This document shows positions 29,601 to 32,600 of a stretch of DNA of 36,232 bases, piece by piece (the stretch's first letter is position 1; every line of letters starts with the position of its first letter). Made by a program: the position numbers. Source of the DNA: a virus (Duplodnaviria > Heunggongvirae > Uroviricota > Caudoviricetes); IMG/VR virus record IMGVR_UViG_2684623127_000008. One strand, 5' to 3'.

Positions 29601-32600
29601 TCTTACTTGGCATTCCCGACTACGCGCTGCTTTTCTCAAATCAGCCATGATTCCTCCTTGCTGCCAGTCGCAACCATTTTTTATCAACCAGGCTGGCGGT
29701 ATATCCGAGCAGTGTTGGTATTTCGGATGGCTTCAGCTCAGGTTTACGCTTACGACGATTTGGTACTTTGTAGATGTGTCCGTTCATGACACGAATAAGC
29801 GGTGTAGCCATTACGCCTCCTGCTTGTCACGCAGCAGCTGGAACTCGCAGCTCTGTGGAATAGTCAGGTGGCAGCCAATATTCATCGCCCAGGCTTCAAC
29901 CTTACACAGGAAGACATACATCTCTCCGGTACCAAGATCGGAGGTATGGCGTAACGACTGGATAGTAGTGATTTCGCCGGTTACGACATCAACCAGGTCC
30001 TTGGTTTCATAACCGAGGTATGTGTGTTTGAGAGCATCTTTTACCCATGCTGAAGTAGCGAACGATTTCCCCCTGCTGATGAGGTATTCACTGATTTCGC
30101 TGTACCACATGTGGCTGAGTGCATTCTGGGAAAGACTGCGTCTCTCGCGCCACGGTTTAAGCACCATGCGAAAGCATTTGCCGTCTTCCAGATAAGTCTG
30201 GATCTGCTGACCGACAGCGGTGAAGTTACCGCGATGTAATTTGATGCCATCTTGTGGGAGGTTCACGCTTCACCTCCGCAGAGATCAAACGCTGGATGCA
30301 AGACATCGCAGGTGCATTTCTGCATCTGTGACAAGGTAAGGAGTTCAGATTGTGGTCGCATTTAAGTCCCCTTAAATGCGCAGAAGTCACCGGAGTTGTT
30401 CAAGCTCCGGTGACATTATTATGGAAGGTTGATACTAAAAAATCAAAAATTGAATATCATTGGCGATAGTCTAGCTTGTGATATCCACAAGCTACTTCAA
30501 TGAAGCGACGAGTAACATTTTGTGTCATCCATGTTTTTTCAGTTAAGTGCCACACCCAGTTCAAAATTTGCTGATGTGTTGAACATGTACTAAGCGGGAT
30601 GTTGTATTCATAAGCAACATTGATTCCGCAAAATCGGTGTCGTGTCATGACCGATTCACGTTGACCTGCGCCCTGTTGAGTGCCTGGGGATATTCTTGCT
30701 CGATAGTTAATATCATAGTAGTTACTTTACTTTCATACCATAGCACGGTTGAAAAAGTGATTATTACTCAAAAATAAACCTCACCATCAACCATATATTT
30801 GAGAGCACTTATCGCCTGCTGGGCGGATATTACTTTCATTAAAGGATAGTGTTTAAAAACAATGCCATTCATAAAATAGATATCACAGGTTTTATTATCC
30901 GTATTAATTATGATTTTTTCGAATATTTTATAGGCAAGTGTACGGCATAACTCTCGTCCATTTTTACTGGTTAAGTCAATAGCATAAAAATCACTGAATG
31001 AATTTACACCTTTACTCTTCAAAGTTTTCAATGATACCAAAGCTCTTCGTAATTCCTTATCTAATAGTCTTATTTTCTCTGCTATAGCGGTAACTTCAGG
31101 CGCGACAGACAATGCAACGATTAAATTATTAATTTTCATCTGAAGCTCAATAATTTTTAACTCTAAAGTTTCATTAGCATCTTTCTTGTTTTCAACTGGT
31201 TGAATTTTGCTACAATTAAAAAGCAATTCATTAATGATATTATAATCAACCAAATCTCTCTTTATTGATGGCCTGTCACATCGATGTAATCTTCTCATCG
31301 GACAAACATAATAGCCATGCAAACTTCCAGATACCGCATGAACAATCATGGTATTACCACAAGCCTCACACTTCATAACTGTTCGAAGTAGATTTATTAG
31401 CATAGGATTCTTGCTACTATTGCTAATACCAAAAGGTGCCAACCGAATTTCCTGTACAGCGTAAAACAAATCATCTGATATGACTCTGGGATAATAGCCA
31501 GCGATTTCACTTATCCCTTTCCCTCTTGCACGATATGAAGGTACGCATATACCTATCAGAGCTTTATTCGCTAATAATTTTTCAATTACAGAAGGCCCCC
31601 ATGCACTTTTTTTTCCTGAGAAATTCTTTACAGCATGATCATTTAAATACTTGGCTATTGCATTCAATGAGCGCCTTTCCATCCTGAGTTTAAAAATTAG
31701 CTCAATAGTTTTCACCCTGTCGGGGTCTGGAACAAAAGCCGTTCTTTTGTCATCTAAGGAGAGCCATCTCGGACAAGACGCCGTCATAATCGTACCTGAT
31801 TCCAGTGCATCCTGCCGTTTTTTCTTCCATGATAATTTAACCCGACTTGACTTTATCTCGCTTTCTTCATTTGCCCTTTGTGCTATAAGTATGGCTTTTA
31901 TTAATGAATATGGCTCATTCAAAGAGTCAATATTATAGACTGTATTGTCGCAAAGAGTTATAACATCAATACCGTGATTCAAAATCAATTTCAGACGTTC
32001 AATCGCTTCACCGACTTTTTCTCTTGAAAGTCTGTCCAGACTTTCAACTAACAATGTAGTTCCTGGCAATATATAACCATGCTCTATAGCATCTAAAAAT
32101 TCCGAAAAAGCTCCTGATTGTGCATGCTTTCCTTTGAATGCACTTAATCCTAAATCTTCATATGTTATGGTATCAAGATAATAATCACTATTTACCTTTA
32201 ACCATTCAGCAATAAGTCTTCTCTGTCGGTTTAATGAGTCGCCAGACATCTGACCTGGTGATGAAAATCGCATATATGCTATGGCTTTTTTCATGGTGAC
32301 ACCTGCTAACTTATGCTTTTATAAACCTTAGTGGTGAGATATAATTTTTGTTTAATTTTTATTTAAAAAGACAATTACGATCACACTATCTTGAATATAC
32401 AACAATAATCGTATTGCAATTTGCTTACGCAATAATCTTGAAGGCACAAAAGAATACACAAAAACTAAAAACATTAACAAAAGCGGCCCATGTAAAGATA
32501 TGAACCGCCATATTGCAGTCTTTTAAAAGAAATTATTTTTAATGTGGTGTGCTTCGTGACAATAAATTAATAACCAACACACCGGCACAAATCAACATCA

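Follow-up and report, generated by a model that had tools for sequence, protein, structure and literature searches.

What controls the nin-Q genes of a lambdoid prophage that has lost its early regulatory region? The question is raised by IMG/VR record IMGVR_UViG_2684623127_000008, a 36,232-nucleotide (nt) stretch of caudoviricete DNA (hereafter the window) that holds a lambdoid prophage remnant, in which the gene chain ylcH-ybcN-ninE-ybcO-rusA-ylcG-Q is preceded by a perfect inverted repeat with arms of 10 base pairs (bp). An earlier interpretation made from the sequence alone (the sequence-only reading) had noted that these genes depend in lambda on pR and N antitermination, both absent here, and had proposed that the dyad is either an operator for a dimeric regulator or a terminator that separates the upstream recombinase module from the nin genes. 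The loss is real, as the immunity and early-left region (cI, cro, N, pL, pR, nut) is entirely missing from the window. As shown below from the pattern of base changes among relatives, the dyad is to be read as the DNA image of a conserved RNA stem-loop of the nin strand, here called hairpin 1, which is kept by compensatory and G·U changes. The most likely role of hairpin 1 is to terminate or attenuate transcription weakly or, at the minimum, to act as a barrier at which 3' ends are formed or protected. Because the nin-chain genes all lie on the minus strand, 'upstream' refers to higher window coordinates throughout, and the positions of all features are collected in Table 1.

A repeat search, together with reading of the sequence itself, recovered the dyad at 30386-30414 with two 10-bp arms that are 100% complementary, a 9-nt spacer and 29 bp in total; its edge lies 24 nt from the ylcH ATG (30361), close to the 25 bp given by the sequence-only reading. 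One perfect 10-bp inverted repeat in 36 kb is not significant by itself, as perfect 10-bp repeats with loops of 3-20 nt occur 0.75 times per dinucleotide-shuffled window, and 46% of the shuffles hold at least one. The window contains six, a total reached by 1% of shuffles, and two of the six are adjacent to each other (30357-30380 and 30386-30414); three further ones were seen at 26603-26628 (near bor), 32024-32047 (inside ybcK) and 32887-32921 (at the 5' end of emrE). The dyad thus owes its significance to conservation and covariation and not to the single repeat. As RNA of the nin strand, hairpin 1 forms a stable, G+C-rich stem of 10 bp at -18.3 kcal/mol (z = -5.7), a favourable outcome of the fold-energy check that had been suggested for it. 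Together with a second, adjacent hairpin (hairpin 2; 86-nt segment) the value is -31.6 kcal/mol (z = -6.2), and the two hairpins are the dominant predicted structures and are retained in longer folds. A scan of positions 29700-31000 against Rfam returned chance-level matches only (engA, E = 5.1, 14.9 bits against a gathering score of 46).

The dyad is not peculiar to the window: it is present in phage 82, in the DLP12 prophage of E. coli K-12, in phi80 and in many other prophages, so that absence from related elements, which the sequence-only reading had named as grounds for dismissing it, was not what we found. We collected homologous leaders from three sources, namely IMG/VR contigs found through YbcN homology, a pattern of loop plus linker, and one genome per species found through an invariant 21-mer in ylcH, giving a comparative set of 82 distinct leaders in 65 different upstream contexts. 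Their hosts include Escherichia, Enterobacter, Citrobacter, Trabulsiella, Lelliottia and others. The block formed by ylcH and its leader occurs in 1856 of 5426 complete E. coli genomes, and also in prophages of Enterobacter, Citrobacter, Klebsiella and Trabulsiella. The copies in phage 82 and DLP12 represent the same element as that of the window, with a dyad identical except for one loop base, the same putative -35 and -10 boxes, the same distance to orf33/ylcH and the same downstream chain. The phi80 copy has the same loop on an unrelated, bulged stem. Altogether, the stem of hairpin 1 occurs in six or more unrelated versions (Table 1), all of which enclose one shared loop core. A 9-codon mini-open reading frame (ATG...TGA) that runs across hairpin 1 in the window was rejected, since its ATG is absent from many homologues.

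Covariation was tested on an ungapped alignment of 37 distinct hairpin 1 versions against 500 shuffles; a plain MAFFT alignment misregistered stems of 10 and 11 bp, which made RNAalifold unusable on it. Standard pairs fill 93.8% of the cells compared with 64.7% in shuffles, nine of the ten pairs show changes on both sides, and the covariation score is 0.755 compared with 0.225, with none of the 500 shuffles matching either the pairing or the covariation value. When the partner columns are slid against each other, pairing collapses to 25-52%. The loop behaves differently from the stem: while both arms drift, the core U, G, A and C of the loop are invariant in all 37 versions. These pairs also distinguish the two strands: the reverse-complement alignment is paired in 84.1% of cells, compared with 93.8% for the nin strand, and G·U pairs fill 49 cells in the nin-strand alignment and 13 in its complement. 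A strand comparison by whole-hairpin folding energy was uninformative, because the antisense loop adds pairs, and pair counts were used for this reason.

This pattern bears directly on the idea that a dimeric regulator binds the dyad as its operator on the DNA, over the start of a nin promoter. The idea was raised by the sequence-only reading, and it is also that of the phage 82 GenBank record (X92588, repeat_region 82-110; Mahdi, Sharples, Mandal & Lloyd 1996), in which the 29-bp dyad is annotated as a 'possible regulator-binding site', with putative -10 and -35 boxes just upstream and orf33, orf151, orf56, orf96, rus, orf45 and Q downstream. It is true that in the window, phage 82 and K-12 the dyad is a perfect DNA palindrome lying over the predicted +1 of a good promoter. 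Most homologues, however, are imperfect as DNA and fully paired as RNA, including the commonest version (GUCAUC...; GTCATC against GGTGAC), so that the perfect palindrome of the window is a minority state; in one stem family (L033, L082) five to six G·U pairs leave the DNA barely palindromic. The stem families differ in sequence, with half-sites unconserved and complementarity kept, the G·U pairs are biased to one strand, contrary to the symmetry expected of a DNA site, and conservation is highest in the spacer, the reverse of the pattern expected from recognition of half-sites. Nor does a regulator gene travel with the cassette; ybcM adjoins it in K-12 and is absent here. Because a dimer on two half-sites predicts the opposite pattern, the operator proposal finds no support for the family, and we consider it very unlikely. 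What the phage 82 record takes for a regulator's binding site on DNA looks, on the comparative data, like an RNA hairpin.

The same strand bias argues against a terminator facing the other way, which would end a plus-strand transcript antisense to the nin genes. In that direction the stem grows to 12 pairs followed by ATTATTAT, and it is flagged by the consensus scan for terminators; however, the T-rich tail simply complements the -10 box, neither a gene nor a promoter of the plus strand is aimed at the dyad, covariation and G·U bias favour the nin strand, and the RNA 3' ends known from K-12 lie on the nin strand. We give this possibility almost no weight.

Those 3' ends are the evidence that bears most closely on what hairpin 1 does. 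A Term-seq study of MG1655 (Adams et al. 2021, PMC7815308) lists curated plus-strand 3' ends at 572,349 and 572,350 of NC_000913.3, seen in two of three conditions and listed 19 nt upstream of ylcH, with the flank ...GTCACCGGAGCCTGAACAACTCCGGTGACTTCTG/CGC. When placed on the sequence, they fall on the nin strand, 5-6 nt past the last pair of hairpin 1, on the linker G and the C that follows it. The same study (PMC7815308) lists no Rho-termination region at the K-12 leader, and the C:G ratio past hairpin 2, about 1.4-1.5, is unremarkable as a Rho-utilisation signature beside a maximum of 2.25 elsewhere. The location also has a counterpart in lambda, where tR2, a stable hairpin between ren and ninB, stands 24 nt before ninB and past the replication genes. 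The two differ in that tR2 has a canonical U tract (TTTTTATTT), passes the terminator scan and has no adjacent promoter, whereas the window element has the tail UUCUGCGC, a promoter that abuts the stem and a conserved loop, and shares no sequence similarity with tR2. The terminator half of the sequence-only reading therefore stands in part: the 3' ends 5-6 nt past the hairpin and the tR2-like position agree with it, and the missing U tract on the nin strand does not. We accordingly favour, at somewhat better than even confidence, a weak terminator or attenuator whose U tract is poor and whose position is like that of tR2, and which forms part of a two-hairpin nin leader with its own promoter.

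The promoter of this leader was found by a consensus scan as TTGATT-17-CATAAT, a sigma-70-type, conserved sequence 3 nt from the dyad, and the promoter prediction that the sequence-only reading had put forward as a check was thus positive. The -35 hexamer TTGATT is present in 69 and the -10 hexamer CATAAT in 70 of the 82 leaders, the spacer measures 17 nt in 80, and the seventh nucleotide past the -10 box is a purine in 81. Information content drops to zero immediately upstream of the -35 box, where homology to other phages ends, and the features kept in the variable zone are TTGAT(T), ATCAA, the -10 hexamer and the 5' arm only. In several independent lineages another promoter-like sequence stands at the same distance (TGtTATAAT; TTGAAA-17-CAATAT). 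Because hexamers, spacing and purine are kept, and because lineages that have replaced the sequence have done so with something promoter-like, there is good evidence for a real, predicted sigma-70 promoter. The -35 box also forms one half of a small TTGAT-N8-ATCAA dyad (window 30429-30446), whose ATCAA (30433-30429) lies within the promoter spacer and is kept in most leaders although sigma-70 spacers are usually free to vary. This dyad occurs once in the window and once in phi80, hence defining no regulon, and to our knowledge the sites of FNR, IHF and Fur do not fit it in spacing or sequence.

Several observations weigh against this account of the leader and have to be set beside it. On the nin strand, hairpin 1 is followed by the tail UUCUGCGC, in which 3 of 8 nt are U, and in one family by GGUUGCGC; the U tract of a canonical intrinsic terminator is missing, and the consensus scan calls no terminator. 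This poor tail is itself conserved across the family. The missing U tract keeps hairpin 1 from being classed among canonical intrinsic terminators. With about 1.6-1.9 thousand reads, the Term-seq signal is low, and it comes from K-12, from which the O157 copy in the window differs by one loop base. The K-12 ends could reflect exonuclease trimming back to a stable hairpin instead of termination, and a transcript that ends there could be either an RNA of about 31 nt from the adjacent promoter or read-through from ybcLM, between which the data do not divide. A conserved loop would be superfluous for a plain terminator. As regards the promoter, a list of K-12 promoters used in vitro by RpoD holoenzyme has no entry between ybcM and ylcH, and the Cappable-seq and SMRT-Cappable-seq supplements for K-12 contain no start at the leader among the entries listed.

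Trimming is central to an alternative in which hairpin 1 would not terminate at all, and would serve as a 5'-terminal stabiliser or recognition element that protects the nin messenger RNA (mRNA) from 5'-end-dependent decay, its loop docking a protein or small RNA and the K-12 ends being trimmed decay intermediates. The position of the predicted start (Table 1) fits this well, as an RNA beginning there would have no unpaired 5' nucleotide in 77 of the 82 leaders. So do the poor U tract, the better conservation of the loop compared with the arms, and the presence in the loop of a Y-U-N-R U-turn-type motif, a mark of rapid RNA pairing. The 5' untranslated region of E. coli ompA offers a precedent, since its stem-loop stabilises the mRNA and does so independently of the loop sequence. 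Like the predicted nin transcript, leaders of the ompA type have a stem-loop first, a short linker and a second hairpin at the ribosome-binding site. They differ in that the nin-leader loop is conserved, its start is only predicted, and its second hairpin hides the Shine-Dalgarno sequence and AUG instead of preceding them. Other observations count against a stabiliser: the 3' ends lie exactly 5-6 nt past the stem, the outer three pairs would fall outside such a transcript and yet are largely kept, and in K-12 the rusA gene stays silent. Searches of the window, the phi80 genome and ribosomal RNAs (rRNAs) for a complementary partner gave none, and no downstream protein universally co-occurs with the leader. 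We regard a purely stabilising role as rather unlikely.

The conserved loop also invites comparison with processive antitermination, in which the element would be a boxB-like hairpin of an N-utilisation site or an RNA like the put elements of HK022. The lambda boxB loop is U-GAA(A/G)A-A, and the loop here, with U-GAACA-A, resembles it. The U-A closing pair is unconserved, however, the last base of the 9-nt loop may be A, C, U or G, no boxA is found in the sequence read, and the same loop occurs in phages with differing N systems (the boxB of phi80 nutL is CACGUAAACGUG). The likeness to HK022 lies in the arrangement, as putL also forms two stem-loops directly past its promoter, pL, at the 5' end of a phage transcript (PMC9378689). 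The put RNAs are about 70 nt long, carry bulges and a triple helix and come as two per phage, whereas the nin leader is about 58 nt long, has regular stems without put-type bulges, occurs once per phage and has as its second hairpin a translation-initiation region. There is no Rfam match, and the window has no terminator between ylcH and Q that would need to be suppressed. Antitermination is for these reasons highly improbable.

Returning to the weak terminator or attenuator, the invariance of the loop raises the further possibility of a regulated, promoter-proximal attenuator, in which the loop YYUGARCNN would dock a host or phage factor, either protein or small RNA, and the docked factor would decide whether the N-independent nin promoter or upstream transcripts run into nin-Q. 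This more specific version is tentative, and we hold it to be improbable at present. A covariance model of hairpin 1 found no second copy in the window or the phi80 genome, and the loop complement TTGTTCARG, sought as a partner in trans, occurs at chance rate, with none in the nin operon. In 16S, 23S and 5S rRNA, no stretch complementary to the loop reaches 7 nt. Among the downstream proteins profiled for co-occurrence (YlcG, Q types, RusA, NinG and others) none is universal, and the pR' region downstream of Q has no evident motif in common with the leader. YlcG itself (46 amino acids; window 28862-29002, minus strand, overlapping the start of Q) is rich in Arg and Trp (AERLRHRWMRLRLYRFPG), a composition that recalls arginine-rich peptides that bind RNA; only 26 of the 50 loci with the leader have it, and it is therefore not an obligatory partner of hairpin 1.

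Hairpin 2 begins 5 nt downstream of hairpin 1, with the Shine-Dalgarno sequence in its loop and the ylcH AUG (30361-30359) in its 3' arm. The phi80 record (JX871397) lists it as 'IR4', described there only as a 10-bp inverted repeat. Like hairpin 1 it covaries: at least seven stem sequences maintain the same architecture at -13 to -17 kcal/mol, always with a GGGA loop and with AUG or GUG in the 3' arm. In one IMG/VR contig (L087, 4061-4084) the loop, linker and start-codon hairpin precede a first gene of 200 amino acids that is not ylcH-ybcN, and the UGA of the hairpin 1 loop serves there as the stop codon of an upstream open reading frame of 82 amino acids.

Taken together, these elements suggest a cassette at the head of nin-Q in prophages of the phage-82/DLP12 type that would consist of a sigma-70 promoter, 3 nt, hairpin 1, UUCUG and hairpin 2. 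Hairpin 1 would stop or limit transcripts arriving from upstream, that is, from the replication genes or, here, from the emrE-ybcK insertion, and possibly also those of the adjacent promoter. Transcripts of this promoter are predicted to start at the fourth stem base, within the 5' arm, and would thus carry a 7-bp hairpin at their very 5' end; they would either end after about 31 nt or gain stability from the hairpin, outcomes that the data do not separate. Hairpin 2 would bury the Shine-Dalgarno sequence and AUG and restrict translation of ylcH, and because every gene down to Q overlaps the next, this would depress the whole chain. In this way the leader may hold down expression of Q and the lysis genes in a remnant without pR, N and a repressor. 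Such a silent chain would fit a published observation on DLP12, whose rusA gene is reported to stay silent unless it receives a promoter from an insertion sequence (PMC4118853), and it would fit the survival of repressor-less remnants that carry Q and lysis genes.

Table 1 Features of the nin leader and its surroundings, with window coordinates, and stem versions of hairpin 1
Feature	Position	Strand	Remarks
-35 box, TTGATT	30441..30446	minus	consensus scan; predicted nin-leader promoter
-10 box, CATAAT	30418..30423	minus	17-nt spacer; ends 3 nt (AAU) before hairpin 1
Predicted transcription start, A	30411	minus	7th nt past -10; 4th nt of hairpin 1 5' arm; inference; K-12 equivalent 572,319 of NC_000913.3
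Dyad arm, CTCCGGTGAC	30405-30414		repeat search of the window
Dyad arm, GTCACCGGAG	30386-30395		repeat search of the window
Hairpin 1 5' arm, RNA GUCACCGGAG	30405..30414	minus	
Hairpin 1 loop, CUUGAACAA	30396..30404	minus	core UGA(A/G)C, best-conserved part of the element
Hairpin 1 3' arm, RNA CUCCGGUGAC	30386..30395	minus	
Linker UUCUG, conserved	30381..30385	minus	alignment of leaders
Hairpin 2, CGCAUUUAAG-GGGA-CUUAAAUGCG	30357..30380	minus	perfect 10-bp inverted repeat, 4-nt loop GGGA
ylcH (orf33 of phage 82), open reading frame of 32 amino acids	30263..30361	minus	first cistron of the overlapping chain
ybcK, large serine recombinase	30768-32294	minus	
emrE-ybcK insertion between ren and nin leader	30415-30767 and 32295-32940		
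Prophage remnant	33936-36232		gene O without N-terminus, abuts xis/int beside icd
Hairpin 1 stem version			GUCAYCGGAG / CUCCGGUGAC
Hairpin 1 stem version			GUCGCAGUCGG / CCGGUUGCGAC
Hairpin 1 stem version			GUUGCGUCCGG / CCGGGCGUGAC
Hairpin 1 stem version, phi80			UCUGCCAG-C-GG / CCCUGGCAGA
Hairpin 1 stem version			YUGCUGUCGG / CCGGYGGUGG
Hairpin 1 stem version			AACGG / CCGUU

The genomic setting is that of a remnant. The query is 100% identical to E. coli O157:H7 chromosomes, in which the element adjoins icd, and its genes, on the minus strand, run from right to left as int/xis, truncated O, P, ren, emrE, ybcK, a spacer, ylcH-ybcN-ninE-ybcO-rusA-ylcG-Q and the lysis and morphogenesis genes. 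The spacer between ybcK and ylcH measures about 400 bp. In K-12, the DLP12 copy of the leader lies between ybcM and ylcH, whereas in the window ybcL-ybcM are absent and ybcK lies upstream, with about 320 bp in their place; a 63-amino-acid open reading frame inside this replacement (30457-30648, minus strand) has no Pfam match. The chain that begins with ylcH extends down to 28176, each gene overlapping the next, and a scan of the window found no intrinsic terminator between ylcH and Q. Within ylcH, the 21-mer CAGATGCAGAAATGCACCTGC (window about 30300-30320) is invariant at the nucleotide level from Escherichia to Enterobacter, Citrobacter and Trabulsiella; it can be folded as a small hairpin with a GAAA tetraloop, and its conservation exceeds the seeming need of a 32-amino-acid reading frame.

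The sequence-only reading had argued that whatever drives or blocks the operon must lie in the interval ahead of ylcH. Likely control signals are indeed present there, in the form of the promoter, the dyad and hairpin 2, but 'must' is too strong. In K-12, a site activated by HusR (YnfL) has been reported between ybcO and rusA, and the window has both of its HusR boxes with one mismatch each, at 29243-29258 (plus strand) and 29594-29609 (minus strand). Judged from this sequence match, the boxes suggest a possible internal, leader-independent route to transcription of rusA-ylcG.

The element is an uncatalogued but conventional cis-regulatory leader RNA that was first noticed in 1996, and the 3'-end data are consistent with a role in ending transcripts; the 'regulator-binding site' annotation of that year is better re-read as an RNA signal. 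It is widespread and not in Rfam, and its conserved loop calls for a binding partner. If the loop-docked attenuator were true, expression of Q and the lysis genes would pass through a riboregulatory checkpoint not described before, present in the prophages of about one third of E. coli genomes. Q, the late-gene antiterminator, stands at the end of the nin-Q chain, and the entry of transcription and translation into the chain therefore determines whether the lysis and virion genes are switched on, and at what time. A leader that unites a promoter, a hairpin at which 3' ends form and a concealed ribosome-binding site provides a concrete and testable explanation for the silence of the O157 remnant and of DLP12 in K-12, and could also explain why rusA needs the promoter of an insertion sequence.

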